Assembly (NCBI GenBank): GCA_037442925.1
Contig: JBBIPG010000030.1
Location: 1-28,021 of the forward strand
Direction of reading: 5' to 3'
Source of the DNA: Candidatus Fraserbacteria bacterium
Lineage (GTDB): Bacteria; Bipolaricaulota; Bipolaricaulia; RBG-16-55-9
Length of the DNA stretch: 28,021 nt
The position numbers and the translations under genes are program-made. Shown here in pieces: positions 1 through 20,827 of this stretch. Below the pieces are notes generated by a model that made no database searches, had not been told where the DNA came from, and saw only the letters and a program-made list of their open reading frames with translations. Within the stretch, counting starts at the first letter, position 1, and the number at the start of each line of letters is the position of its first letter.

Positions 1-99
1 TAGGGAGAGGCCGGTTGCGCCCCAGGCCATCGGGATGGGGAGGAGTGTCAGGGAAAGCAGAAGTACGAGAGCAGAGCCCAGCAGCTTCTCAGGCTTCAT
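1..99 (-). CDS. 5' end of a secreted hypothetical protein, truncated by the window edge
   Basis: Not in the ORF track. ATG at 99, 17 bp after the stop of the beta-propeller gene, preceded by AGGGGA. Translates to MKPEKLLGSALVLLLSLTLLPIPMAWGATGLSL, a signal-peptide-like sequence open to position 1. Confidence 0.65.
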   Translation of the reverse strand, partial: MKPEKLLGSALVLLLSLTLLPIPMAWGATGLSL

Positions 100-116
100 A
101 GTGAAAATCCCCTGAC

Positions 117-1586
117 TCAACGGCTCTGGGCTGGGACATGCACCCGCCCGCTGTGCTGAGGGTCCCCGCGGAACATGGGCCACGGGGAATCAGCTAAGCC
201 TGGACTACCCGTCTGAAGCGCATACACCTGGCCCTCGCAGTCCGTCTCGCCCCCTCCCCCAGTCCACTGGCAGGGGCCTACGGTAGTGAAGTAGAGCGTC
301 CCATCTTGAGCCAGTGTCGGTGAAGAACGGATATCCCCAGCTGTCTCGAAGGTCCAGAGCAGCTCGCCTTCGGAACTCAGGGCATAGATCTTGCCAGCGT
401 AGGATTCAGAGATGGGTCTGAAACTGCGCACTGAGATGGCCGTCGGCAAGTAGATCACCCCGTCGGCCCCGACGGCGGGCGTGCCGGAGATGTACTCCTT
501 TGGGTCTTGTAGAGGGAAGCTCCAGCGGATCTGGCCTTGATGGGTGAGGGCGTAGAGGGTATGCATCTGTCCGCTCAAGCCCAGATAGATGGTCCCATCA
601 GCTCCCAGAACCGGCTCGGTGCGGGCAAGCTCTCCTCTTCGTATCCAATCCCACAAGATGTTCCCTTCGGCATCGAGGGCATAGAGCGAAGTGCCCGCTC
701 CAGGCAGTTGCCCATAGGAAGAAAGATCAAGGAAATAGTGATCGCGCACGGTGATGTACAGCCTGCCCTCGGTCCCCGGCACCGCAGAAAAAGTCTTGAA
801 TCCCATAGTTAATGCCAAACTAAGAAATGGTTCAGCGAATCGTGGCAAGGGGAGCCGGACCACACGTTGCAGGCTGCCATCAGCAGAGAAGGTGTATTGC
901 AGAAGGGAGCCTCTTGCATCGTCTGGTAAGTTTCTTCCCAGAATCTCGCCAAGAGCCGCTGCTACAAGGAGAGTCCCATCCGGTTGAATTAGAGTAGGAG
1001 CTACTTCCAGGTCATATTCGCCTTCCGGCTTGGGAGTAATGTGGTCTGCCAGCTTGATAGGCCCCCATTTCACCGAGCCGCTCTGCGCGTCCAGCGCAAT
1101 CGGATCACGGTAAAGCAAAGCAGTGAAGATCGTATCTTGGCTATAGGACAATATCGATGGGTAAGGAACCACCTCCCGAGTCCACTTTGTTGACCCATCT
1201 GCTCGGACAGCCAGAATGGGCACCCCAGCACCATATATATCCCCTTGGGGATCAACCACAGGCGTTCGATCAGCCAAGCAGTCTTGAGGCTTGGCTGAGT
1301 CTTGTTCCCATTTCAAGCCTCCTTGAGGATCGAGGGCAAGAAGGCATTGCCAGGTCACATAGACTGTGCCATCAAGGCTGACCGCCGGATCACCGCTAAC
1401 AAAGCTAACCCCTGCGAACTCCAGTCGTGGGAGTTCATAGACCCACTTGAGGGAGGGCACCAACGCTCGCTGGGGTGGCTGACCCAGGGTGAGCACAGAG
1501 CCGTCCGGCTTGAGAAATGGCAGCAGGAGCATCCCAAGGAGCGCCCACCGCAACGGCGTATAGAGAGTGCACTCTCGCTTCTCCAT
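117..1586 (-). CDS. Secreted PQQ-like (BamB-type) beta-propeller repeat protein, about 489 aa
   Basis: Repeated blades of the form P-(A/V)-x-x-x-DGT(I/V)Y ... (L/I)YAL-x-x-x-G-x-x-x-W. C-terminal SPWPMFRGDPQHSG closure motif. Hydrophobic N-terminus WALLGMLLLPFL. Start moved from 1664 to ATG 1586, which has GGAGGAG 8 nt upstream and avoids overlap with the upstream ORF. Confidence 0.8.
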   Translation of the reverse strand: MEKRECTLYTPLRWALLGMLLLPFLKPDGSVLTLGQPPQRALVPSLKWVYELPRLEFAGVSFVSGDPAVSLDGTVYVTWQCLLALDPQGGLKWEQDSAKPQDCLADRTPVVDPQGDIYGAGVPILAVRADGSTKWTREVVPYPSILSYSQDTIFTALLYRDPIALDAQSGSVKWGPIKLADHITPKPEGEYDLEVAPTLIQPDGTLLVAAALGEILGRNLPDDARGSLLQYTFSADGSLQRVVRLPLPRFAEPFLSLALTMGFKTFSAVPGTEGRLYITVRDHYFLDLSSYGQLPGAGTSLYALDAEGNILWDWIRRGELARTEPVLGADGTIYLGLSGQMHTLYALTHQGQIRWSFPLQDPKEYISGTPAVGADGVIYLPTAISVRSFRPISESYAGKIYALSSEGELLWTFETAGDIRSSPTLAQDGTLYFTTVGPCQWTGGGGETDCEGQVYALQTGSPGLADSPWPMFRGDPQHSGRVHVPAQSR

Positions 1587-1605
1587 CACTCTCACTCCTC
1601 CCGAC

Positions 1606-4004
1606 TCACTGAGCGCAGATGCCCGACGTGAATCGTATCCCCGAGTACGGATCGGTGCAAGCATTCACCGTGGTGCCGCTGATCGTAGGGGGCGCTGATC
1701 CCGCAGGGGGAGTGCTGCTGACAGGTTGGGATGAGCAAATTCCCAGCGAGAGACAGAGCTGCGCGGCATCGCCTTCATGTTGCCCAAAGCTGTAGACCAC
1801 CTGCCCGTTGAGCACGACGATGATTGTCACCCTACCACCGAGTGGGTGCTGCGCCGCATAGTTTTGGATTTGGCTCTTGAGACGTTCCAGAGCGGCAGGA
1901 TCAGCACCTTGTAGCTCAATCACCACGACTCGATCCCTGCCTATGTTCAGGCATTCCCCACTATATGCGCCCAGGGCACCGCACCTATCCCTAGCTACAT
2001 TCATGGCATCGCGAAGTCGTCGCTCGAATCCCGTGCAGCAATCGGAACTGACGTCACTGGAATGGAGGAAGGGTTCAATCACGATGTATGCCACCAGCTT
2101 GTCTCCCTTGGTTGCGATTACATCGATACGCCTGTCTTCGCCACAATTCTGGGTATCGCCACCCTCAAGAATCTCGCACGCTGAGTAGAAGATGCGCTCC
2201 AGATTCCACCCTTGACCTCGGTTCAGAATCTCCGTGGCCAGACGGACCGCCTCCTGAAGCCGATAGAATCTTTCAGCATCCCTTCCCGCTCCCGAGATGA
2301 CCAAGGCCAACGTCAGATCCTGGAGATCTCCCCTGATCAGCGCTGATCCCGCCAGGCTACCCACCTGCTCGTAGAGGCTCTTCACCGCCTGGAAGAAGCT
2401 CACGCCATCCGGATAGGGAAACTGCGAGAGAGAACTGTCGATGGCACCCGGATTCAGCACGCCTTGCGCTCTTAGGCCATCGATCCAGCCCACCGCGAGC
2501 ACTCCCACCGGCCCGAACTGCTCAATCATCCAGCTCATCAGCGCTTGATCTTTCACTTGGTAGAGGAAGTACTGCAAGAAATTGAGCACCAAGCTCGCTT
2601 CTATGTTGTTATTGCCCGTGATCCTGCGCACGAAGTCGATCAGCGCGCCGACCAACTCATTAAGACCAGGATGGTTCTGTGGGTCGCGCCAGTCGGGGTT
2701 GTCTAAGATGAACTGCGAGAGCACACAGGAACTGGGGTCCGGACACTGAGCCTGCAAGGCAGCCAAGTCTTGGAAGAGCCCGGACCAGGCGGCTGCGGGA
2801 TCGGGCAAGGCGTTCATGCGGCTGGAGAATTGTTGAATGAAGCTCAAGACTTCTCCACCACAGAGGCTGATGCTCGCCAGGGTGATGCTGATGAAGTTAA
2901 AGGGTGGAGGTAGAGAGAAGCGAATCCCGATGCTGGCACACAGCAAGCTCACCCCTTGGCCTTCGACCTCGCTGCCTTGGAGATAGCCTCTCTTGAGGGC
3001 TAGATCGCGCAAGGCTTGCACCGTCTGCAGACTGGGATTGTTCCAGCCGGCCAGGAGCACGCTCATCTTGGGATCGGGGAAGAAGGCGATCCCTGGTTTA
3101 TTCAGCGCTTGGCTCACCTGGTTTTGCAGCTGAGCTGTCTCCGTGTAGAGAGCCGGTCTCGTCTCGTACTCCCACTGTTTCTGGTACCAGCGCTCATCGT
3201 AGTCCATACACTGGAGTCGGCTTACCGTGCTCGCCCGGCCCAGATAGGGAGCAGGGCAGTAGGGCAGCATGGGTTTTCGCAATTCTATCCCCTTCTTGAC
3301 CGCGGGTGCAGGCGGCGGAGGAGGCGGACTCGGAGGAGCAGGCTTGGGTGCTGGCAACTTCGGCGGGGTTGGAGTCGGCTTGGGCTTCGGCACAATCACC
3401 GGCAGATCTGGCAGCTCCACTGGCAGGATCTGCCAGCTCCCTCTGCCTCCTGAGCTGACCCGTTGCACCTTCACAGTGGTGTGCACCGCCCGATCCAGAT
3501 CGAAGCTCATCCCGCCCGGCAGCAGGGCCTGCCCTGCGGCGGTATCCACCTCCGGCACGACCACCAAAGCCGTGGCTTCCTCTTGGTCGGCATCGAGGAT
3601 GACCACTTGTGCTTGAGACCAGTCCAGTTCCTGAGCGCACACCCTGAGCTGAGGCCCCACTCAGCAATGGCTGCACTTGAGAAGCAATCTCTTGGGCGCC
3701 AATCTCATCCGGGAGGAAGAGATCGACTCCTACTGGCTCCTCAGGGCTGGAGACCTCCCCTTCCAGTTCCACCGCCAGCTGAGTGAGCTATTGGCCTCCC
3801 TCGTCTGCTCCCACTACGGCAGCCCAACTGTTGCTCTGGTGAGCCACTTCGTTCTCCAGAAGATAGAGCGCGGCATCACTGCCCGCGGGGACTTCGATGA
3901 GGGTGACCTCTGTTGCGGTCTCCTGCTGAGCACTGAGTCCTGGTCCTTTGGCCTTGCCCTTCACCTTGCAGCCGTGGGCCTTGCTAAGCACCAGCTTCTT
4001 GCCC
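1606..4004 (-). pseudogene. 5'-truncated, disrupted paralogue (orphan cassette) of the 819-aa lipoprotein at 5290-7749
   Basis: Track ORFs 3788..4132, 3194..3772 and 1606..3660 align consecutively to residue 93 onward of the 819-aa protein. No signal peptide or start codon. In-frame TAG at 3788-3790 where the paralogue has Gln. Frameshift near 3635-3638 (GVR-SGT versus expected GVR-AQELDW). The 3' 684 codons are open and include a Pro-rich linker. Confidence 0.8.
3851..4004. repeat. Direct repeat (homology arm), copy 2, paired with 7321-7474
   Basis: Ungapped hand alignment at offset 3470 gives 121/154 identical nt, and 51/54 over 3951-4004. Similarity ends abruptly at 4004/7474. Confidence 0.9.
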
Positions 4005-4058
4005 TTAGGGGAAGAACTCGTGCCCGTGAGGCTGACGGTGGGAAAGGATACACCTGGA

Positions 4059-5288
4059 TCAAGGCTTGATGAAGTCCGAAGGCCAGGGGAAATCCGGAGG
4101 ACAGAGGTCTTGCTTGTTCTCTCGGAATTCATTTTCTATTCCACTGATCCGATAAATCTCTTTTAGCTCTACTTCCGGTGCCACTTGCACCTGAACTCCA
4201 CAGCTGTTGCGTGCAAACGTGTTGCGACTGATCGTCAGACGAACTCTCCCATTGATGTGGAGCCCTGTTGCGCAGTCTTCAAACGTATTTGTTCTGATTA
4301 TCCCTGTGGAAGGTCCTTCCACCGCAAAGCAGGGTAGAAGCGTTCCTCTGCCTTTCCTAAAGAGGTTATCCTGCGCGAGGAAGATTCCACCTCCTCCAAT
4401 GGTGAGGAAGGAATCTTCAAACTGGTTCTCCATAACCGAGATGGCGCGACCGCTGATCAGCGATTCTTGAAAGCGATTTCGCTGAAGTGTCCCACTCTGC
4501 ATTAAAAGCAATGAAGAGTTGATGAATTCGTTGCCATCTAGGATCGCTTCTTCTAGGTTAATGATATTTACTCGAGTGAAGTGATCGCCTTGAAGCCACC
4601 AGGAGATGTCTCGTTTCTCTGTTGACTCTTCTGTTGCTGGTGGGAGCGGATCGTATAGGTGTGTATTCTCAAAGAAACTGTCTATCACCTGCAGTTGAGT
4701 CCCTTCCCAGACGGCTAAGGCAGTGTGCCAATTTCGGAAGATCACGCGGTCCATCTCGATCACACTCTGTGTAGCTTTCGACTCTTGAAGCCAGTTAGTG
4801 ATCTCTAGGGCAGTGTATCGTAAACTTGGGTTGAGAGCTTGATCCAGCGTGAAACCTTGAAAGGTCAGGTTCTCCAAGCGGACCCAGCTGCCTCCAAACC
4901 GAGATCCTACCCGCAGGCGCAAAGCCGGTCGATTATCAGTGATCTGGGGGAAGCCTGTCTGCCAAATGACTCCATCACCAGCTCCACGGATGAGCACCGC
5001 CGTGGCTTGAAGATCGGGGTTGGCAGGGAAAATGACACTCTCCTGATAGATTCCAGGCTGGATAAGGATGGTAGGAATCAAAAAAGGTCGAGAGGATCTG
5101 GCCGCTTCTAAGGTTTGTTCGATAGCTTGGAAGGCTGAGGCAATAGTAGGGTATGGACATCCTTGATGGCAAACCTCTAGTACCCATCCGCTGTCCGCTG
5201 GAAGAGATCCCTGCCAATATCCCTCTGATCTTGTGAGTCCAATCAGCAAGCCGCATCCAACGAAGATCAACAGTGGTATCCTAAGCAT
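4059..5288 (-). CDS. Secreted right-handed parallel beta-helix (pectin-lyase-like/NosD-like) protein, 409 aa
   Basis: Signal-like N-terminus MLRIPLLIFVGCGLLIG. Typical beta-helix cap VCHQGCPYPTI...TILIQPGIYQESV. Repeating xxN-x-F coils (GNEF, RNRF, ENQF, DNLF, TNTF, RNTF, ENEF). ATG lies 1 bp after the TAA of the 819-aa gene. Confidence 0.75.
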   Translation of the reverse strand: MLRIPLLIFVGCGLLIGLTRSEGYWQGSLPADSGWVLEVCHQGCPYPTIASAFQAIEQTLEAARSSRPFLIPTILIQPGIYQESVIFPANPDLQATAVLIRGAGDGVIWQTGFPQITDNRPALRLRVGSRFGGSWVRLENLTFQGFTLDQALNPSLRYTALEITNWLQESKATQSVIEMDRVIFRNWHTALAVWEGTQLQVIDSFFENTHLYDPLPPATEESTEKRDISWWLQGDHFTRVNIINLEEAILDGNEFINSSLLLMQSGTLQRNRFQESLISGRAISVMENQFEDSFLTIGGGGIFLAQDNLFRKGRGTLLPCFAVEGPSTGIIRTNTFEDCATGLHINGRVRLTISRNTFARNSCGVQVQVAPEVELKEIYRISGIENEFRENKQDLCPPDFPWPSDFIKP

Positions 5289-5289
5289 G

Positions 5290-7749
5290 TTAGATGATCT
5301 GAACTAAACGACATTTCAAGCTCGATGTACAAGCGGAACGGGGCTGGACTGGTTGGTAGACATCAACTGAGTTTGTATTGTCGGATTGAGACTGGCTTGC
5401 TTGAGTTTCACTGACGCACAGTCCCATTTCTATGCATAGTTGTTGAATCTCGGCCGTGACGGTAGTACCCTGAGGACCCGTACTGCACGCAATGCTCCCT
5501 TGAAAGACAACTACTGTCGGCTGTTGGCTGACGCCCCCAAGTAACGCACATGCATTCTGAACTGCTCCGGGATCTGCCCCATGAATTACTACGAATATTA
5601 TCCCCCAGTAGTTTTTAAATTGCCCATTTAGCAGGTTTCGCAATACATTCTGGGCTCCGTAAATTCGATCTCCTAGTGTCAATATCTCATTGGTTTGAAG
5701 ATAAGGTTCAATGAGGATGAAAGCAACCACGGGTGTTCCACCTAGAGCATCCGGGTATCCTGTGACCAATAGATCGCAGAGATGTTGTGCTCCTACAAGT
5801 CCACCTCGGCACGGGTTAAAGATTCTTTGAAGAGTCCATCCTCGACTGTGTAGGTTCAACGCTAAGCTCAGGGCTTGCATTGCTCGCTCAATCAACTCAA
5901 CGGCGCCTTCCTTACCTGGACCATTCTTCAGCACCTCTGCTACAGCGGATGATACTACAATCAGAAACCTATAAATCTCACAATATGCGGTATTGTTGCT
6001 GAGATAAACTTGCTCGGCTAGTGGCAGTATTGCTGTGGCCCATGCAGCAGCTCTGGGATCTGATTGCTGAGCAACTAGGTTTTCTATTAAGGAGAATACC
6101 ACAATCCCCGTCGCACCAAATCCCCAGAACTGACTCGAGGCAGCTCGACGCAAAGTCTCTGCATCTAAGACTGCTCCGGCTTCCCTCAATGATGCTTCAG
6201 TTCTCGAGAAGAATTCGTTCATGAGAGGGTCGTTTTGTCTAAGGTATTCGTACCTTCTTTGAAATTCTTCCGGATCATCTTTGACGGATGCCAACTCTGC
6301 TAGTTTACTGGCTATGTGCTCCTTTTCGTCATCATTTCGCGATTGCACCCAAGAAGCTACCCCTTGTAACCCCCAACAGACTCCGTCTGCGATCAGTCCT
6401 CCTACTCCCGGTAGCATTCCAAGTATAGTAGCAATAGCGTCACAAACGGTTGTAACGGTATCCAACCAGCCATTTTGGCATGCGGCTTCGAGTGGTTGCC
6501 GTTGCTGCGCCTTAACTGCTTGCGCTGTAGCCAGCACAGCCCTTGCTTGTTGATAAAAGCTGCTCATCTCTTCTTGGGCAAGGTTCCGAAAACCAACTAT
6601 CATAACGTCAACGTCTTGGCCCCGAAAAACGAGTATATCTTGCTTGAGGTTAGCTGCCTGAACTTTCTGCTGTACAGAGGCGATTCTCTGAGAAGCTCGA
6701 TTTACTGTCCAAGGCTGCTCATAGTCTTGGCAAAATGCCCTCCGAAACGAATTCAACCGCCCATAATAGCCATACGGGCACATGTAGAAGGATTCTGCCT
6801 GTTGCAGTTCGCTTCCTCTTCTGCTGCCGAGAGGAGGGGAGCTGACCTGCAGAGTAGATCGTGAACTTGCTGTAGGGGTACTCCGCCTTATCTTTGTTCG
6901 CATGTATGTCACACGATCTAGATCAAGATTCGAACCTGTACTCCCCCACAGACTCTGACTCACTGAGCCCATCTCTGGAACAACCACTATCGCTTCTAGT
7001 TCCTCAGAGCCATCAGAGTTGACCACTACTTGCTGATCATCGAGCAGCACTTCTGCATGAGTCCAATCTAGCTCTGCTGTGCTTAGCGCTCTTACCCCAG
7101 CAGTGTCTGCGCCGGAAGCTAAAAGCTGTTGCAACTGAGAGGCCACTTCTTGCGTGCCAACTTCATCTGGCAGCAAGAGGCTTACTTCAGTGACCTCACC
7201 GTCGCTTGATCCTTGCACACTAGCGCTCCCTTCCAGTCCTACCTCCAAGTGAATTAGCTGCTCGCCGCCTTGGGCCACTTCTCTAAAGGAAGCCCAGGAG
7301 TTAGTCTCACTGCCTGTCTCGTTCTGTAAGAGGTACAGAGCCGCATCTGAGCTTGCGGGCACCTCGATCAGGGTGACTTCTGTGATCGTTTCCTGTTGAG
7401 CCCTCAGCCCCTGCCCTCTGGCCTTGCTCTTCGCCTTGCAGCCGTGGGCCTTGCTGAGCACCAGCTTCTTGCCCCGGCGTTCGAGAGCCTGCTTCAGTAA
7501 TTGGATCTCCTGTCTGTCCTTGAGGGCCTTCTCTGCCAGTTTCTTGGCCAGTCCGGGAGCGAGATCCCTCACACAGTTTGGAGGTCTGCCCTGACCTTGG
7601 GCGGCAATGAGCCAAGTGGATGTGCCTGAGAGTTCTGGAGTGTCTGAGGAGTCTTCCAGTGGATCGTTGGGAAAGAGCTGGGAACATCCGGTGAGGATTC
7701 CGAGGAGCAGCAGGAGTCCGCCGAAACCGAGCCCGTGAAGTTTTTTCAT
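5290..7749 (-). CDS. Large Cys-rich lipoprotein of unknown family, 819 aa (candidate polymorphic effector or surface protein)
   Basis: MKK, a hydrophobic stretch and lipobox LTGC (Cys22). AAAAGGGGG SD-like sequence upstream. Strong promoter at 7777-7805. A paralogue at 1606-4004 supports coding status. Confidence 0.85.
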   Translation of the reverse strand: MKKLHGLGFGGLLLLLGILTGCSQLFPNDPLEDSSDTPELSGTSTWLIAAQGQGRPPNCVRDLAPGLAKKLAEKALKDRQEIQLLKQALERRGKKLVLSKAHGCKAKSKARGQGLRAQQETITEVTLIEVPASSDAALYLLQNETGSETNSWASFREVAQGGEQLIHLEVGLEGSASVQGSSDGEVTEVSLLLPDEVGTQEVASQLQQLLASGADTAGVRALSTAELDWTHAEVLLDDQQVVVNSDGSEELEAIVVVPEMGSVSQSLWGSTGSNLDLDRVTYMRTKIRRSTPTASSRSTLQVSSPPLGSRRGSELQQAESFYMCPYGYYGRLNSFRRAFCQDYEQPWTVNRASQRIASVQQKVQAANLKQDILVFRGQDVDVMIVGFRNLAQEEMSSFYQQARAVLATAQAVKAQQRQPLEAACQNGWLDTVTTVCDAIATILGMLPGVGGLIADGVCWGLQGVASWVQSRNDDEKEHIASKLAELASVKDDPEEFQRRYEYLRQNDPLMNEFFSRTEASLREAGAVLDAETLRRAASSQFWGFGATGIVVFSLIENLVAQQSDPRAAAWATAILPLAEQVYLSNNTAYCEIYRFLIVVSSAVAEVLKNGPGKEGAVELIERAMQALSLALNLHSRGWTLQRIFNPCRGGLVGAQHLCDLLVTGYPDALGGTPVVAFILIEPYLQTNEILTLGDRIYGAQNVLRNLLNGQFKNYWGIIFVVIHGADPGAVQNACALLGGVSQQPTVVVFQGSIACSTGPQGTTVTAEIQQLCIEMGLCVSETQASQSQSDNTNSVDVYQPVQPRSACTSSLKCRLVQII
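7321..7474. repeat. Direct repeat (homology arm), copy 1, paired with 3851-4004
   Basis: Encodes GKKLVLSKAHGCK...EVTLIEVP.SDAALYLL. About 79% nt identity to 3851-4004 by hand count. Confidence 0.9.
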
Positions 7750-7776
7750 GATGCGCCCCCTTTTGATCGCAGGGTC

Positions 7777-7805
7777 ATACTAGCATAAGATTGTTAAAAT
7801 GTCAA
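7777..7805 (-). promoter_or_regulatory. Sigma70-type promoter of the lipoprotein locus
   Basis: Minus strand TTGACA-17 bp-TAGTAT with a TGn extended -10, ending 27 bp upstream of the ATG at 7749. Confidence 0.8.
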
Positions 7806-7814
7806 GGGGGGGGG
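7806..7814. repeat. G9/C9 homopolymer abutting the -35 box
   Basis: Nine consecutive G on the + strand directly next to tgtcaa (7800-7805). Confidence 0.9.
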
Positions 7815-7860: not shown

Positions 7861-9159
7861 TCAACCAACCACCCGAACGATTTCATCCCGCAAATCCTCT
7901 GGGAAACAGAGTCGAGCGCGGGTGACCAGCCGATTTGTGATCGCCTGAATCAACTCCGAGTGCTCCGAAAGCTCCAGAAGATTTAAATCACGATCGACCA
8001 AAAATATACTCTCACTCACCTCATCTTCACTGCGACGAAAGAGGCCATCTACATAGGGGTCAGCTACGGCCGTATCCAGCACGAGGTAGTAATCTGGATC
8101 AAACTTCCTCGCGCGGGCAAGCTTCTGCAGTTTGTTCTTCAATCGCTCATCTCGTCTCGGCTCCATTTCCACTGTCTTGAAGATCCGCCTCTCCCGAAAG
8201 CGTCGACAGAGATCGGCCAAGATGCCATCTCCACTGTGACTCCACTCTTTGATGGCATACGCCAACACGACATCATCTAGCTCCAGGAACTCTTGAGGCG
8301 TGAGCTTTGCAGTTTGAGTGATGAGCTTGCAGAGAGGTTGGGGAGCAAAGAGATCGCGACCTTCCTGCAGGAGTTCTGCGACCCGTCTCAAGATCTGTGT
8401 GATCATCACCCCCGCCGCTCGACTGGTCTTGTGATGATAGACTTGCTGGTACATGTAGTACCGCGCCAAAACATAGCTTTCGACTGCTCGCAACCCTTTC
8501 TCTCGATCGACGGCGATCTCCCAGTCGCCTTGATGCTCTAGAATGCGTACGCTGTGGATCAGCCACTCCAGGTCGAACTGGCCATAACCGACGCCGGTGT
8601 GGTAGCTGTCACGCAGCAAGTAGTCCATGCGATCCACGTCGAGTTGGCTGGAGATAAGCTTTACGGCAAAGGACGGCTTAAAAGTCCGCTCGATGATCTG
8701 GCAAACGACCTGCGGATACGTTCGATCACAGGCCTTGAGGATCTGATGGACTTGTCCCCTCGGATGAGCGATGAGCCGAGCTGTCCAGATCTCGTGATGT
8801 TGACGCGTGAAATTCTCCAGTAAGTGGGAGAACGGGAAGTGCCCAATATCGTGGAGCAAGGCTGCTGCCAATAAGACTTCACGATATTCTTGGAGTTGTT
8901 CGACAAGCGGGCGAAAGCGATGGTCACTGGAAAGGCCTTGCATCTCTGCAATGATGCGCTTCATCAGGAACGCTGCACCCAACGAGTGCGAGAAGCGATT
9001 GTGATCGGCACCAGGGTAGACGACGTAGCTTACTCCCATAAGCTTGATGTGCCGTAGGCGCTGGACTTCGGGTGTCTCAATAAGATCTAGTACAAGCTTG
9101 TCGCGCTCGCGGTCAAAGCCCATTAGGTTGTGTACGGGATCGCGAAAGACCTTCTCCAT
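7861..9159 (-). CDS. HD-domain phosphohydrolase, dNTP triphosphohydrolase/SAMHD1-YwfO-like, about 432 aa
   Basis: Motifs [46 protein letters not shown] and MYQQVYHHK. Start placed at ATG 9159 ([10 protein letters not shown]) because the longer ORF overlaps icd. Confidence 0.88.
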
Positions 9160-9262
9160 GACTTCTTGCGAACTTGCTCCCCTCCTCCCGAAGCCGGTAT
9201 CATCAAGCATATCGTATGTATCAGGGTACAGGAAAGAAGGGAGAAAAGACCAACGCAATCTC

Positions 9263-10507
9263 ATGGCAAAGTTTTCCATAATACAAATCCCAAAGACCGG
9301 ACAAGTCATTGAGTCAGAAAACGGGAAGCTGAGAGTTCCCGACCATCCCGTCATCCCCTTCATCGAGGGCGATGGCATCGGACGCGACATCTGGCGGGCT
9401 ACAAAGCAGATACTCGATCAAGCTGTCGACAAAGCATATGCAGGCAAGAAGAAGATCGAATGGGTGGAGATCTTCGCTGGCCAGAAGGCAAAGCAGCTGT
9501 GTGGCGAGCTTCTGCCCCCAGAGACGTTGGCCGCCATTCGCGAGTTCAAAGTGGCCATCAAGGGCCCGCTAGAAACGCCTGTGGGCTCCGGTTATCGCAG
9601 CTTGAATGTCGCGCTCCGTCAAGTGCTCGATCTCTATGCCTGCGTGCGCCCCGTTCAGTACATCCCCGGCGTGCCCAGTCCCCTCAAACACCCAGAGAAA
9701 GTCAACTTCGTGATCTTTCGAGAAAACACAGAAGACGTCTATGCGGGCATTGAGTGGGAGGAAGGCTCTACCGAAGCCAAGAAAATAATCACTTGGCTCA
9801 AGAAGGAATTCAAAGTCAACGTGCGCACGGACTCAGGCATTGGCGTCAAACCCATGAGCCAGATGGCCACAAGGCGCTTGGTCCGCAAGGCCATCGAGTA
9901 CGCGATTCAGAACAAGCGCCAGCGAGTGACGCTCGTCCATAAGGGTAACATCATGAAGTACACGGAAGGAGCTTTCCGCAAATGGGGCTATGAGTTGGCC
10001 GCGGAGGAGTTTCCAGACAGGATTATCACGGAAGAAGCACTCTGGGAACGGCATGGCGGAAAGATCCCTGAGGGTAAGATCGTCATGGATGATCGCATTG
10101 CCGACATCATGTTCCAGCATGTGCTGACGCGCCCTGATGAGTTTGAAGTGATCGCCACGCCCAATCTGAACGGGGATTATTTGAGTGATGCCTGTGCTGC
10201 CCAAGTAGGCGGAGTAGGGCTCGCCCCGGGGGCAAATATCGGCGATGGAATTGGCTTTTTCGAAGCGACCCACGGGACGGCTCCCTCCCATGCCGACAAG
10301 AATGAAGCCAATCCTACAGCCTTGCTCTTATCCGGGGTCTTGATGTTCGAGTATCTAGGCTGGCAGGAGGCGGCGGGACTCGTTCGCGATGCGCTGGCCG
10401 AGACCATTCAGCAGAAGCGCGTCACGTATGATCTGGCACGCCTGATGGAAGGAGCCAAGAAGCTCTCCACAACCGCCTTTGCCGAAGCTGTCATTGAAAA
10501 CATGTGA
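9263..10507 (+). CDS. icd: Isocitrate dehydrogenase, homodimeric E. coli type, probably NADP-dependent, 414 aa
   Basis: [74 protein letters not shown]. Start at ATG 9263. Confidence 0.95.
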
Positions 10508-16182: not shown

Positions 16183-17226
16183 ATGGATGATCGCAAGCTC
16201 TTGGTATTGAAAGCCATTGTCGATCACTATATCAAGACGGGCCAGCCGCTCAGCTCGAAGACCTTGCTGGAAGACTATGGACTTCGCGTGAGTTCGGCGA
16301 CGGTTCGAAATGATATGAAGTATCTGGAAAAGCGCGGCCTAATTCGCAAGGAATACAGCTCGGCCGGGCGCCTGCCCACCGAGCGCGGATATCGTTTCTT
16401 TGTGGATTGGCTCGTGCAACTGAGCGAACTTACCCGTCATGATCAGCATTCGATTATGGAAAGTTACCGCTTTCAGCGTCAGCAGATCGAGGAGCTTCTG
16501 CGACAGACGGCTTTCCTGCTGGCCAGCATGAGCGGGTATGCCGGGTTTGTACTCTCTCCGCGTCTCGAAGAGACCCGTCTGGAATCCATCGCCTTCGTCA
16601 AGCTGGATGAGGAGAACGTGCTCGTCGTCGTCGTCTCCGAGCTGGGTATCGTCGAGCATTGCATGATCCGCATCTCGCTTTCACCCGACGAACTCCAAGA
16701 GATCAGCGCCCTCATTAATGAGAAGCTGAGAGGCCACCGTCTCGATGAAGTCCGAAGGGAGGCGATGCAGTTTGCCCAGGGCGATGGCTGGCATGACCCG
16801 ACTCTGCAAAACGCGTTTGCCCTTCTTAAGGAGACTCTGGAGCGCCGGCTCCAAAGACGCCTCCACGTCGAGGGCTTCTTCCGTCTGTTGCCAAGCCTCT
16901 TGGAAGAAGGACTGGAGCTTACGAAGGCGCTGGAGGTCCTCACGATTCTGGGGGATGCGGACCGATCCAGCTCGTATTTGGAATCTCTCTCATGCCCAGA
17001 AGTACGAGCTTGCATCGGCTCCGAGAACGATCTGCGGGAGCTTCGCTCTTGCAGCTTGGTTCTCATGGCGTATGGTTTTTCTGGTGTCGTAGGCATCCTG
17101 GGCCCCATCCGCATGGACTACAGCAAGGCCTTTGCGATCACGAGCTACATTGGCAATCGCCTCCGCACGATCCTCACGCTCAGCCACTGGGAGCAGATGC
17201 CAACTCTTGCAAGAGAGGTGGATTGA
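16183..17226 (+). CDS. hrcA: Heat-inducible transcription repressor HrcA
   Basis: YIKTGQPLSSK, SATVRNDM, SAGRLPTERGYRFFVD, GILGPIRMDY. CIRCE upstream and grpE-dnaK-dnaJ downstream. Confidence 0.96.
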   Translation: MDDRKLLVLKAIVDHYIKTGQPLSSKTLLEDYGLRVSSATVRNDMKYLEKRGLIRKEYSSAGRLPTERGYRFFVDWLVQLSELTRHDQHSIMESYRFQRQQIEELLRQTAFLLASMSGYAGFVLSPRLEETRLESIAFVKLDEENVLVVVVSELGIVEHCMIRISLSPDELQEISALINEKLRGHRLDEVRREAMQFAQGDGWHDPTLQNAFALLKETLERRLQRRLHVEGFFRLLPSLLEEGLELTKALEVLTILGDADRSSSYLESLSCPEVRACIGSENDLRELRSCSLVLMAYGFSGVVGILGPIRMDYSKAFAITSYIGNRLRTILTLSHWEQMPTLAREVD

Positions 17227-17228
17227 AC

Positions 17229-17801
17229 ATGGTCGAGAACCGGCAACCAAAGCAAGATCTCCCACCGCAGAGGGATCAAAACCCGACGAAGGACACGGGA
17301 GCAGTACCGTCGAGCCAGGGAGGTATCGAAGTGCTGGAGCAGAAATTGAAAGAGACCGAAGACCAACTCCAAGCCTACATTGACCGCTTACAGCACCTGC
17401 AGGCCGACTTTGAGAACTACAAGAAGCGTGTGGCTCGCGAGCAGGAGGAGTATGCGTATTTCATCGAGAACAGGCTCTTATTGAAGATCCTGCCTCTCTA
17501 TGACAACCTCGAGCGGGCATTCCGCTCCTACAACCACAACAACGATAAAGACTCGTTCATTGAGGGCATGGAGCGGATCTTTGCGCAATTCAATGAGTTC
17601 TTGAAAGCACAGGACGTACGGCTGATTGAGGCATTGGGTCAACCCTTTGATCCTTCGCTGCATGAGGCACTCTTGCTCGTCGAGACCGATGAGAAGCCTA
17701 ATATTGTCTTGGAGGAGTTTGAACGGGGCTATCGGCGCGGCGATCGGTTGCTGCGCCCCAGCCGTGTGAAAGTCAGCAAGCGAAAAGAGTCGAAGGAGTG
17801 A
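17229..17801 (+). CDS. grpE: Nucleotide exchange factor GrpE, 190 aa
   Basis: LQADFENYKKR, LPLYDNLERA, FDPSLHEA, GY...LLRPSRVKV. Start at ATG 17229 after GAGGTG. Confidence 0.95.
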   Translation: MVENRQPKQDLPPQRDQNPTKDTGAVPSSQGGIEVLEQKLKETEDQLQAYIDRLQHLQADFENYKKRVAREQEEYAYFIENRLLLKILPLYDNLERAFRSYNHNNDKDSFIEGMERIFAQFNEFLKAQDVRLIEALGQPFDPSLHEALLLVETDEKPNIVLEEFERGYRRGDRLLRPSRVKVSKRKESKE

Positions 17802-17806
17802 TTTCT

Positions 17807-19669
17807 ATGGCGAAAGAGAAGATCGTGGGAATTGATCTCGGAACTACGTTCTCTGCGCTGGCCATCGTGGAAGGCGGCAAGCCGGATATCATCCCCAATG
17901 CCGAGGGCGAACGGATCACGCCTTCCGTAGTCGCCTTTGCAGAGAATGGAGAGCGCATCGTGGGCAGCTTGGCGCGACGCCAAGCCGTCACCAATCCGGA
18001 GCGCACGATTCTGGAGATCAAGCGCAAGATGGGGACCGACCATCGGGTGAAGATTCAGACGAGCGCTTGGACCAAAGAGTTCTCACCGGAGGAGATCTCG
18101 GCCATGATCCTGCAAAAGCTCAAGGCCGATGCGGAGGAACGACTGGGTCACAAGATCAAGAAGGCCGTGGTCACCTGTCCGGCGTACTTTAATAACATGC
18201 AACGGCAAGCCACAAAAGACGCCGGCAAGATTGCCGGGCTTGAAGTGATGCGCGTCTTCAACGAGCCCACGGCCGCCGCACTGGCCTACGGCCTCGATAA
18301 AGAGAAGGATCAGACGATCCTCGTCTACGATCTCGGTGGCGGAACGTTCGACATTTCGATCCTCGAAATCGGCGAGGGCGTCTTTGAAGTGGTTGCCACC
18401 GGAGGCGACACGCAGCTCGGTGGGAAAGATTTCGATGAGCGAATCATGCACTGGCTTGTCGAGGAATTCAGAGCAGAGACCGGTATCGATCTGAGAAAGG
18501 ACTTGTCGGCCATGCAGCGGCTGAAGGACGCGGCCGAGAATGCCAAGAAGGAGCTCTCGTTCAAGCAAGAGACACCGATCAACTTGCCCTACATCACGGC
18601 CGATGCCAAAGGTCCCAAGCACTTGGAGCGAAAACTCACGCGCGCCAAGTTGGAGAGCTTGATCGGTGATTACTTAGAGCGCTCGCTCACGCTCGTGCAG
18701 CAGACGCTTAAAGAAGCCAAGATGACTGAAAAAGATATCGATCAAGTGGTGCTCGTGGGAGGCTCAACGCGCATCCCCAAGGTGCAACAACTCCTTGAGC
18801 AAGTCATCCCCGGCAAGATCAACAAGGAGATCAACCCGGACGAAGTCGTGGCGCTAGGAGCAGCCTTGCAAGGAGCCGTCTTGGCCGGAGAGATCGATGA
18901 GATCGTGTTGCTTGACGTCACGCCTCTGACTCTTTCCATTGAGACGCTCGGCGGGGTCGCTACACCCATCATCGAGAAGAATACGACCATACCGTGTGAG
19001 AAGACGCGGGTCTTCACGACAGCCGAGGACGGCCAGACTACAGTAGATATTCACATCACCCAGGGCGAGCGGAAATTCTCGGCCGACAACAAGAGTCTGG
19101 GCCGATTCCAATTGACGGGCATTCCCCCAGCCCCTCGCGGCATCCCGCAGATCGAAGTCAAGTTCGCCATCGACGCCGATGGACTTCTCAATGTCACAGC
19201 CAAAGATCTGGGCACGGGCAAGTCTGCCAGCATTCAGATTCGCGAGTCTTCGCGTCTTACGGAAGACGAGATCAAGCGCATGCAGCAAGCCGCAGTGGAG
19301 CATGCGGAAGAAGATCGCCGCAAGCTCGAAGAGATCGAGACGCGCAATCAAGCGGATCAGCTGGCTTACTCTGTGGAGAAGAGCCTGCGCGAGTTTGGAG
19401 ATAAAGTGAGCGAGGAGAGTCGGAAGAAGATTCAGACCAAAGTGGACGAACTGAAGGACCTGCTGAAGCGGGAAACCACAGTGGCAGAGCTTAGACGTGT
19501 TATGGAGGAACTCAAGCAAGCTTCCTTTGAGCTGGGCCAGCAGATCTACCAGAAGCAGGCCGAAGCGGCCGCGGCAAGCCAAGCGAGCGCCGATGGCAGC
19601 GATCAGAGCCGCAAGGGCACCGGAGACTATGTCGAAGCCGAGTACGAGAAGGAAGACGACAAGAAGTGA
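17807..19669 (+). CDS. dnaK: Chaperone DnaK (Hsp70), 620 aa
   Basis: [55 protein letters not shown]. Start at ATG 17807, 8 nt after AAGGAG. Confidence 0.98.
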
Positions 19670-19670
19670 G

Positions 19671-19713
19671 AGCAATCAGCTGGCTGACTGCTGACCGCTG
19701 AAGACTGAGAGCT
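19671..19713. repeat. Degenerate heptamer tandem repeat with an inverted copy, dnaK-dnaJ spacer
   Basis: GCTGACT-GCTGACC-GCTGAAG-ACTGAGA-GCT (19683-19713), preceded by AGCAATCAGC, which is complementary at 9/10 positions to 19683-19692. Confidence 0.7.
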
Positions 19714-19717
19714 ATCC

Positions 19718-20827
19718 ATGGCTGAGAGAGACTATTACGAGCTCTTAGGTGTCACCCGCGAGGCCTCGCCGGACGATATTAAGAAGGCATACCGGCGACT
19801 GGCGAAGAAATACCATCCCGATATCTCCAAGGATGGCACCAGTGCCGAGAAGTTCAAGGAGGTCGCGGAAGCCTATGAGGTGCTATCTGATCCGGAGAAG
19901 CGCGCGCAGTACGACCGCTTTGGTCATGTAGGGCCAGAGCAAGGCTTCGACTTTGACATTCGCGATTTCCGCCGCGCACGCGAAGCGTTCGAGGAGTTTG
20001 GCTTCGGAACGGCTTGGGACGATCTCTTTAGCATGTTCTTTGGCGAGGGGATGCGCACCGCAGGGACCCGTGTGCAGAAGAGGACCCGAGCTCAACGCGG
20101 CGAAGATCTCGAATACAGACTGCGACTTACGCTGGAGGACGCCGCCCAAGGCACTCGGGTTAAAGTGACTGTTCCCAGATACGTTCCGTGTGAACACTGC
20201 CGCGGTACGGGTCGTGAGCCAGGATCGAGCGTGCAGGTGTGTCCGACATGCCACGGGCGCGGTCAAATCGAGCACCGGCGTCGAACGATGTTGGGTAGCT
20301 TCATCAACGTGATGACTTGCAACCAATGTGAAGGCACGGGGCAGATCGTTCAGAATCCGTGCCGGAAGTGTGACAGTCAAGGCCGGATCTGGGAGCAGAG
20401 TCGTATCACGATCCAGGTGCCGCCGGGGGTGGATACGGGCTCCCGGCTGAGACTATCCGGCGAGGGAAACTCCGGCGTGAACGGCGGACCGCCGGGGGAT
20501 CTCTATATTGTCGTCGAGCTTGCCCCGCATAATACATTCACACGCAAAGGGGACGATCTCTACTGCGAAATCCCCATCACGTTCACCCAAGCTGCCCTGG
20601 GGGCCAAGATCAAAGTCCCCACGCTCTACGGACAAGAGGAATTGAGCATACCAGCAGGGACTCAATCTGGAGAGACATTTGTGTTGCGCGGCCAGGGGAT
20701 TCCGCACCTGAAGGGCCAAGGACGAGGGGATCAGTACGTGATGATTAAGGTCGTGACTCCCAAGAATCTCACGCGTCGGCAGCGACAGTTGCTCGAAGAG
20801 TTAGATCGAGAGCTGAAAGAGGCGTAA
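19718..20827 (+). CDS. dnaJ: Chaperone DnaJ
   Basis: J-domain with HPD, G/F-rich region, four CxxCxGxG-type motifs (the last CRKCDSQG), GDLY C-terminal domain. Confidence 0.98.

Follow-up and report, generated by a model that had tools for sequence, protein, structure and literature searches.

The window analysed here, a 28,021-nt stretch of a Candidatus Fraserbacteria bacterium genome (GCA_037442925.1, contig JBBIPG010000030.1; the genome, G000, is 2.07 Mb and 94% complete), opens with five genes that all lie on the minus strand: an intact lipoprotein gene (carrier A), a secreted beta-helix gene (partner P1), a headless paralogue of the carrier (orphan B), a secreted beta-propeller gene (partner P2) and the 5' end of a small outer-membrane-like gene (Table 1; C-numbers denote contigs of G000 or the carriers on them). 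The order is that given by an earlier, sequence-only reading of the same DNA, which had also placed one strong promoter ahead of the co-oriented series; we recover both the promoter (TTGACA-17-TAGTAT, one of seven sites of that quality against 3.8 +/- 1.9 in shuffled sequence) and the tight spacing of 1 bp from A to P1 and 19 bp from orphan B to P2. Such carriers and partners form multicopy pairs in G000 that co-vary and recombine, are accompanied by headless orphans, evolve under purifying selection and mostly have a degenerate catalytic motif. From these features we infer, with a probability of about 0.5, that the cassettes are a toxin-derived lock-and-key system of the cell envelope, with kin discrimination as its function and binding of the carrier by its partner as its basis.

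G000 contains 12 carrier C-terminal domains spread over nine contigs, and eight full-length carriers; contig C14 terminates in a carrier N-half whose continuation is probably the start of C11. Across the family the N-half is conserved and the C-half variable. At the thresholds applied, Pfam, NCBIfam and PADLOC assigned carrier A to no family (best Pfam E 0.09), and no curated model, for S-layer proteins or others, matched it by sequence. Directly after each of the 12 C-terminal domains, at gaps of 1-119 bp, comes a repeat protein that is predicted to be secreted: a beta-helix in 10 cases, a PQQ propeller in one and an RCC1 propeller in one. The sequence-only reading had said that it would fall if homologues proved to be single-copy, uncoupled from a partner or members of a characterised family, and the 12 coupled copies and the lack of a curated match leave it standing on all three counts. 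The ratio of nonsynonymous to synonymous substitution rates is 0.15-0.35 for carriers and partners in four matched pairs, as estimated from sequence, which shows purifying selection on both.

The C-terminus of the carriers is predicted to adopt the PD-(D/E)xK nuclease fold, because models of two of them agree, three copies (C27, C28a and C9) carry an E..D..ExK motif, C28a matches YraN (E 1.3e-4), and a language-model match to Tox-REase-7/-2 (score 0.89, a lead only, with no Tox-REase match in Pfam) points the same way. The model of A (mean predicted local distance difference test score, pLDDT, 73; predicted template modelling score 0.48) is confident in the C-terminal domain, mostly confident in the N-terminal domain and poor in the helical middle. 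Its top 10 structural matches are all restriction-endonuclease-fold proteins, and it aligns with Upx (Z 9.3, root-mean-square deviation 3.4, 120 residues aligned), reported to be a PD-(D/E)xK defence nuclease (PMC13099982), with the P. abyssi repair endonuclease NucS (Z 9.3, deviation 3.2, 104 aligned), and with R.BspD6I and N.BspD6I (Z 8.8), AF1548 (8.6) and FokI (7.9), although unrelated models typically reach Z scores of 7-8, so that values of 8-9 clear them by no more than a small margin. A separate model of the C27 domain (pLDDT 79.6) matched proteins of the same kind (best Z 8.5) and aligned with the CdiA-CT structures 4zqu, 4g6u and 4g6v at Z 6.6-6.7 (4zqu 6.7). On this assignment, two of the motifs shared by the paralogues coincide with core strands of the fold: GWxLxRIF with the first and IEP[FY]L with the third. 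Profile searches of the PDB by sequence returned only helical designed proteins or noise.

The active site is another matter. E/QxK is intact in 4 of the 12 G000 copies (the three named above and C40, which has QxK), and A and orphan B belong to an EP[FY]L class with Pro instead of the catalytic Lys. When we sorted 75 domains (those of the 69 of 106 stored proteins that reach the C-terminus, plus six from G000), only six were E/QxK, 41 were EP[FY]L, 14 were RGDHC and 14 fell into other classes, and the first Asp was kept in 40. In a quick, unfinished tree the deepest split (midpoint root) has domains with an intact motif on either side of it, which suggests that the catalytic motif was lost repeatedly and that radiation followed.

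The partners are equally unlike those expected of a nuclease toxin. All 27 beta-helix partners examined begin with a hydrophobic, signal-like stretch (by a hydropathy check rather than a trained predictor), a feature that would make an ordinary cytoplasmic immunity role impossible, and the 10 of G000 end in a shared LCPxDxxWPxxFxKxP motif, which P1 bears in the form LCPxD(F/Y)xWPxxFxKxP. There is, moreover, no room for a separate cytoplasmic immunity gene within the carrier-partner gaps. Several cassettes are followed by a 151-aa outer-membrane-like gene or its remnant; the protein is hydrophobic and multicopy, with a signal peptide and a terminal Phe, has no Pfam or NCBIfam match, and from its sequence is probably a small beta-barrel. 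The gene is present in five of nine genomes of the family, four of which also have carrier matches. Besides window positions 1-99, copies lie at C1:94222-94677, C11:2049-2504, C40:1762-2217 and C24:28915-29370 in G000, and a second genome, G149, has 11 matches.

These observations bear directly on a plain polymorphic toxin-immunity system, in which all C-termini would be toxic, by variant sites or by membrane damage, and the partner would be an extracytoplasmic immunity protein. The fold is common to CdiA-CT and Tox-REase toxins, the toxin-then-partner order and the orphan pairs resemble those set out in the available text of PMC3482391, the motif survives in four G000 copies, and in G049 the same N-terminus carries an alpha/beta-hydrolase-like C-terminus. 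Yet so few of the 75 domains retain E/QxK or the first Asp, and the gaps are so small for the cytoplasmic immunity gene normally needed by a producer of active nuclease, that we regard this explanation as unlikely, though one to be taken seriously. More generally, the family shares with polymorphic toxins a conserved N-terminal region with a variable C-terminus, a co-inherited downstream gene, orphan modules with recombination and, in both models, a toxin fold; it departs from them in its catalytic residues (IEP[YF]L in A and B) and in partners that are predicted to be extracytoplasmic. As mostly degenerate nuclease sites and partners predicted to be extracytoplasmic together break the classical toxin-immunity pattern, we favour an envelope lock-and-key.

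Table 1. Features of the carrier-partner cassettes and their flank (positions in the window).
Feature	Position	Strand	Remarks
Sigma70-like promoter, TTGACA-17-TG-TAGTAT	7777..7805	-	10/12 consensus matches
Carrier A, intact 819-aa predicted lipoprotein	5290..7749	-	
Carrier A, predicted signal peptide II, lipobox LTGC, Cys22	7684..7749	-	sequence
Carrier A, conserved N-terminal alpha/beta ('escort') domain, ~residues 59-311	6817..7575	-	mostly confident model
Carrier A, CPxxYxGR..C motif, border of conserved and variable halves	6757..6780	-	C1/C11 crossover just upstream of equivalent motif
Carrier A, variable helical middle region	5890..6756	-	model
Carrier A, Gly-rich hydrophobic stretch in the middle region, possibly a membrane-contact hairpin	6397-6444	-	
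Carrier A, predicted PD-(D/E)xK (restriction-endonuclease) fold domain	5425..5889	-	D659 and E681 kept; Lys position degenerate (IEPYL)
Partner P1, 409-aa predicted secreted right-handed beta-helix	4059..5288	-	PF13229, E 9.8e-7
Spacer from P1 to orphan, 52 nt, single occurrence in genome	4007..4058	-	bridged by run X1 contig 3953-7486
Orphan B, 5' remnant without signal peptide (left homology arm)	3635..4006	-	TAG 3788-3790; 2-nt deletion near 3632-3636
Orphan carrier B, body, 674 open codons, Pro-rich linker, nuclease-like C-terminal domain (IDV...IEPFL, Lys position degenerate)	1606..3630	-	closest paralogue C26
Partner P2, 489-aa predicted secreted PQQ/BamB-type beta-propeller	117..1586	-	PF13360, E 1e-13
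5' end (first 33 codons) of 151-aa outer-membrane-like gene (right homology arm)	1..99	-	100% identical to G000:C1:94579-94677
HD-domain gene flanking the cassette, outside the system	7861..9390	-	

Carriers and partners change together. For 26 carrier/beta-helix pairs from seven genomes and one metagenome contig (a set that leaves aside the propeller-partner pairs and G103, in which an assembly gap cuts the C-terminal domain), the nearest neighbour by C-terminal domain is also the nearest by partner in 16, compared with a mean of 1.0 and a maximum of 8 after shuffling. A Mantel comparison of C-terminal domain with partner gave a rho of 0.34, with a p of 2e-4 that overstates the significance, the pairs being related, and within G000 (10 pairs) rho rose to 0.51. 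Eleven pairs have an N-terminal segment that could be scored; C-terminus and partner agree in six of them, N-terminus and partner in none. Exchange is also visible at the sequence level: over 300 nt the identity of C1 and C11 is 97-100%, after which it drops to the background level, and the alignment thus places a recent crossover immediately ahead of the CP motif. Pairs of one type, furthermore, sit at different chromosomal sites in G000 and in the related genome G036.

In the lock-and-key that we favour, the family would descend from polymorphic nuclease toxins, and the surface lipoprotein would present its variable nuclease-fold domain as a key on cell contact. The cognate beta-helix or propeller, for which the small outer-membrane protein might serve as an anchor, would capture this domain at the surface or in the periplasm. 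A minority with intact E/QxK may still cut nucleic acid in unprotected cells, and the majority, A and B included, would signal identity, acting by binding or through hydrophobic helices. New keys would be loaded by homologous recombination extending from the carrier N-terminus to the end of the downstream beta-helix or the outer-membrane gene. A wider version of this idea, tentative and in our view less probable than its core, is that a disarmed toxin family became a non-lethal, recombinable identity code, with pseudo-nuclease keys, extracytoplasmic beta-helix or propeller locks, cyclic-dinucleotide control and alleles segregating in wild populations of a deep-branching diderm lineage.

Several points weigh against the lock-and-key, beginning with the narrow margin of the Z scores and the relatedness of the pairs noted above. 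Foldseek returned no match at E<=0.001 for the A or the C27 model, and 10 of the 26 pairs, A/P1 among them, are discordant, mostly at low similarity. Adjacency and common descent would also produce co-variation, so that what the pairs establish is co-transfer rather than binding. The coupling has exceptions as well: a carrier in G055 has no beta-helix partner, the C32 carrier of G149 is followed directly by the outer-membrane-like gene, and G000 itself has beta-helix genes of the partner type with no carrier upstream (C22 and C81). Finally, purifying selection is unlike an arms race, and the riboswitch control described next fits adhesion equally well. The gene that follows the G055 carrier (L017:7243-8433) encodes another nuclease-like domain, which has a hydrophobic anchor of its own at the N-terminus.

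The promoter block of A precedes four of the eight full-length G000 carriers (A, C14, C11 and C28a), and the other four stand behind riboswitches of the cyclic di-GMP (c-di-GMP)-I clan that score above the gathering threshold; Rfam had no match inside the window. G000 has 17 such matches (for example C58:6503-6589, C65:1391-1474 and C8:594-676), an unusually large number for a 2-Mb genome, and G103 of the same genus has nine. Most other targets look secreted or surface-bound by their N-termini (immunoglobulin (Ig)/PKD-like proteins and other lipoproteins), and two are CRP-like regulators. A regulon made up mostly of secreted proteins is what one might see if lipoprotein, beta-helix and small barrel formed a variable surface adhesin or coat complex that varies attachment or evades phages and predators, the nuclease fold being a repurposed scaffold that holds the complex's own subunit and plays no part in cell-cell discrimination. 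Beta-helices and beta-propellers are common binding scaffolds, Ig-like ASH and PKD domains occur in other family members, and the full-length G000 carriers scored contain 10-17 Cys; an adhesin would nonetheless leave unexplained both the intact catalytic motifs of several lineages and the silent headless pairs behind intact genes, and we think it rather improbable. The riboswitches upstream of four carriers, together with a nuclease fold outside the cell, could also speak for a role in biofilms, in which the carriers would bind or break down extracellular DNA from the cell surface and the partners would be accessory matrix proteins. Such a role would have no need for 12 divergent variants with co-varying partners and sits badly with the loss of most catalytic residues, and it seems a distant prospect.

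The headless paralogue called by the sequence-only reading indeed lacks a head and starts at position 4006; its 48 of 61 residues identical to A at the orphan start are exact, and all the motifs listed for the two proteins are present. The orphan also has an in-frame TAG (3788-3790, where paralogue C27 has TGG) and a 2-nt deletion, both in the 5' remnant, although these lesions may be sequencing errors, since none of the listed pieces of this allele in run X1 spans 3632-3790. Where that reading needs amending is in the relation to A, of which B is not a tandem copy. B matches A at 79% DNA identity over only 156 nt, compared with 80% over 1025 nt for C26 and 82.5% over 703 nt for C27; being nearer to carriers on other contigs than to its neighbour, it was, by sequence, likely imported rather than duplicated in place. 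Had the family simply expanded by paralogy, with B as a tandem duplicate in decay, this would account for the stop, the frameshift and the missing start, and for the nonsense codons in two more G000 copies. With B closer to distant-locus paralogues, with a partner of its own and 674 open codons, and with orphan-partner units in three other genomes, this account is already largely refuted and we consider it highly improbable. The two further copies are the C28 and C40 carriers, each with a single in-frame nonsense codon (TAG, TGA) in the N-terminal domain and an intact nuclease motif; a preferential silencing of intact-motif copies (nonsense in 2/3 full-length intact versus 0/5 degenerate) was considered and dropped, the cases being too few.

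The flanks of the orphan suggest that it occupies one of two states of a single site. The empty site is marked by G103 and G036, where pdhB comes immediately after the HD gene; G000 has its pdhB on contig C1, after a further carrier/beta-helix pair, the outer-membrane-like gene and one more gene. In run X1, which may be the source sample, contig depth is 16.7 for A-P1, 17.9 for the C1 flank and 18.6 for the shared head of the outer-membrane-like gene, compared with 11.4 for the C1 cassette and 3.9-5.2 for B-P2 (one figure per contig, with no contig spanning the locus). Because of this synteny and because the two cassette depths (11.4 and ~5) together approach that of the flanks (~17), the orphan slot would hold two alternative cassettes between the same arms. 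Run X2 contains a relative that carries A-P1 and B-P2 at ~91% identity, and a 2-nt insertion at 3636 in one of its contigs possibly belongs to that relative's copy of B. Stretches lacking contig cover were given no weight as evidence: the unique part of the C1 cassette has none in X2 or X3, and in X3, where A-P1 is covered, B-P2 has next to none; X4 was shallow.

Arrays of carrier, partner, orphan and partner recur at C28 of G000, at C18 and C1 of G036, at C5 of G018 and at C12 of G034, and orphan-partner units thus occur in three genomes besides G000. The carrier is present in 9 of 151 sampled genomes of the phylum, all of one order, and within that order a profile picked it up in 12 of 35 genomes; the family was seen in this one order alone, which is probably Bipolaricaulota/Fraserbacteria. 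Searching 1.84 billion representatives with a profile yielded 101 matches at E<=0.001 (without taxonomy), and a DNA motif scan found five short metagenome contigs with related loci. Pattern scans for related loci yielded none among 152 metagenome candidates and one among 83 genome candidates, and nothing usable came of a language-model search in which full-length A was the query. The C-terminal half is also found behind Ig-like repeats in other family members. ASH-type repeats of this kind carry it in L067 (G034:C12:1-9000), where an array of three units includes WD40 and beta-helix partners, and in L066 (G029), which has a PQQ propeller partner like P2. Three ~1200-aa relatives (P0076, P0082 and P0087) have a divergent N-terminus and PKD/Ig domains inserted before the CP motif and nuclease-like domain. 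The G049 lipoproteins L024, L025 and L028 combine the same N-terminal domain with PKD and alpha/beta-hydrolase-like C-termini (PF02089, E 6.5e-4 and 2e-3, below the curated cut-off) and adjoin arrays of ~200-aa paralogous secreted proteins.

By analogy, the architecture is of the polymorphic-toxin type and closest to the SitAI lipoproteins of myxobacteria. SitA C-termini are, in the accessible portions of the two reports, active non-homologous nucleases that are toxic in the cytoplasm, delivered through TraAB-dependent exchange of outer membrane and neutralised by SitI, which is SUKH-like in the case of SitI1 (PMC5562445, PMC8546572). As far as those portions go, both systems have many dispersed loci per genome, a lipoprotein with a conserved N-terminal escort and a variable nuclease-type C-terminus, a cognate gene directly downstream and an optional accessory gene; here, however, most C-termini share a single fold and lack the catalytic Lys, the partner is a beta-helix or propeller that is predicted to be secreted, and the accessory gene, unlike sitB, lies downstream. 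The comparison was made at the level of family models, and no Pfam or NCBIfam SitA model was matched by A.

The sequence-only reading had drawn its parallel with CdiA/CdiI, Rhs and MafB. Like those loci, as presented in the available text of PMC3482391, the cassettes place an intact gene and its partner ahead of headless modules with a homology arm and exchange modules by recombination; copy number, the conserved and variable halves, the co-varying partner, recurrent orphan arrays, breakpoints and a toxin-type fold thus bear the parallel out. It fails where the carrier is a lipoprotein, the partners are a paralogous family of their own and predicted to be extracytoplasmic, and the C-termini are mostly of one fold, most without the catalytic Lys. 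The same reading's statement that FHA, Rhs, MafB and VgrG/PAAR sequences are lacking agrees with our searches, in which no such domain matched A or B, and Hcp (PF05638) was not found in G000 at its 94% completeness. The carriers share with Tox-REase-7/-2 and YraN/UPF0102 the fold and, in a minority, the E..D..ExK motif, and differ from them by additional elements with Cys at the C-terminus and by a Pro-rich tail that has Cx(3-8)C at its end.

IdsD and IdsE of Proteus mirabilis, membrane proteins delivered by a type VI secretion system, form a non-lethal cognate identity pair. They have no sequence relation to the carriers and serve as an analogy only. We found no description of the carrier family among the papers searched; members could be listed in subscription articles or in supplementary files, Additional File 1 of PMC3482391 for example.

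If the lock-and-key is correct, the carriers would be a new family among polymorphic conflict systems, with a new partner logic, secreted beta-helices and propellers taking the place of cytoplasmic immunity, and with large radiations of nuclease domains that lack the catalytic lysine. It would also offer a first concrete way into the study of how cells interact in an uncultured lineage that neighbours Thermotogae, and the 12 x 12 combinations of natural domains with natural partners could be used to ask how toxins become recognition tags. Bipolaricaulota/Fraserbacteria are placed beside Thermotogae and credited with an outer-membrane tether in the part of the source available (bioRxiv 10.1101/2021.05.31.446380), and G000 has three Omp85 matches.

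Short motifs of the form (L/V/I)(S/E)(A/G/T)Q recur in the carrier linkers (A residues ~113-120, 178-181 and 218-223) and in unrelated G000 lipoproteins (C42, C15 and C43), and might, speculatively, be a processing or export signal. Elsewhere in the window, positions 16183-20827 hold an ordinary hrcA-grpE-dnaK-dnaJ heat-shock operon, and the rest is housekeeping: icd, a tryptophanase-like gene, tpiA, fpg and a peptide ABC transporter (all names by inspection).

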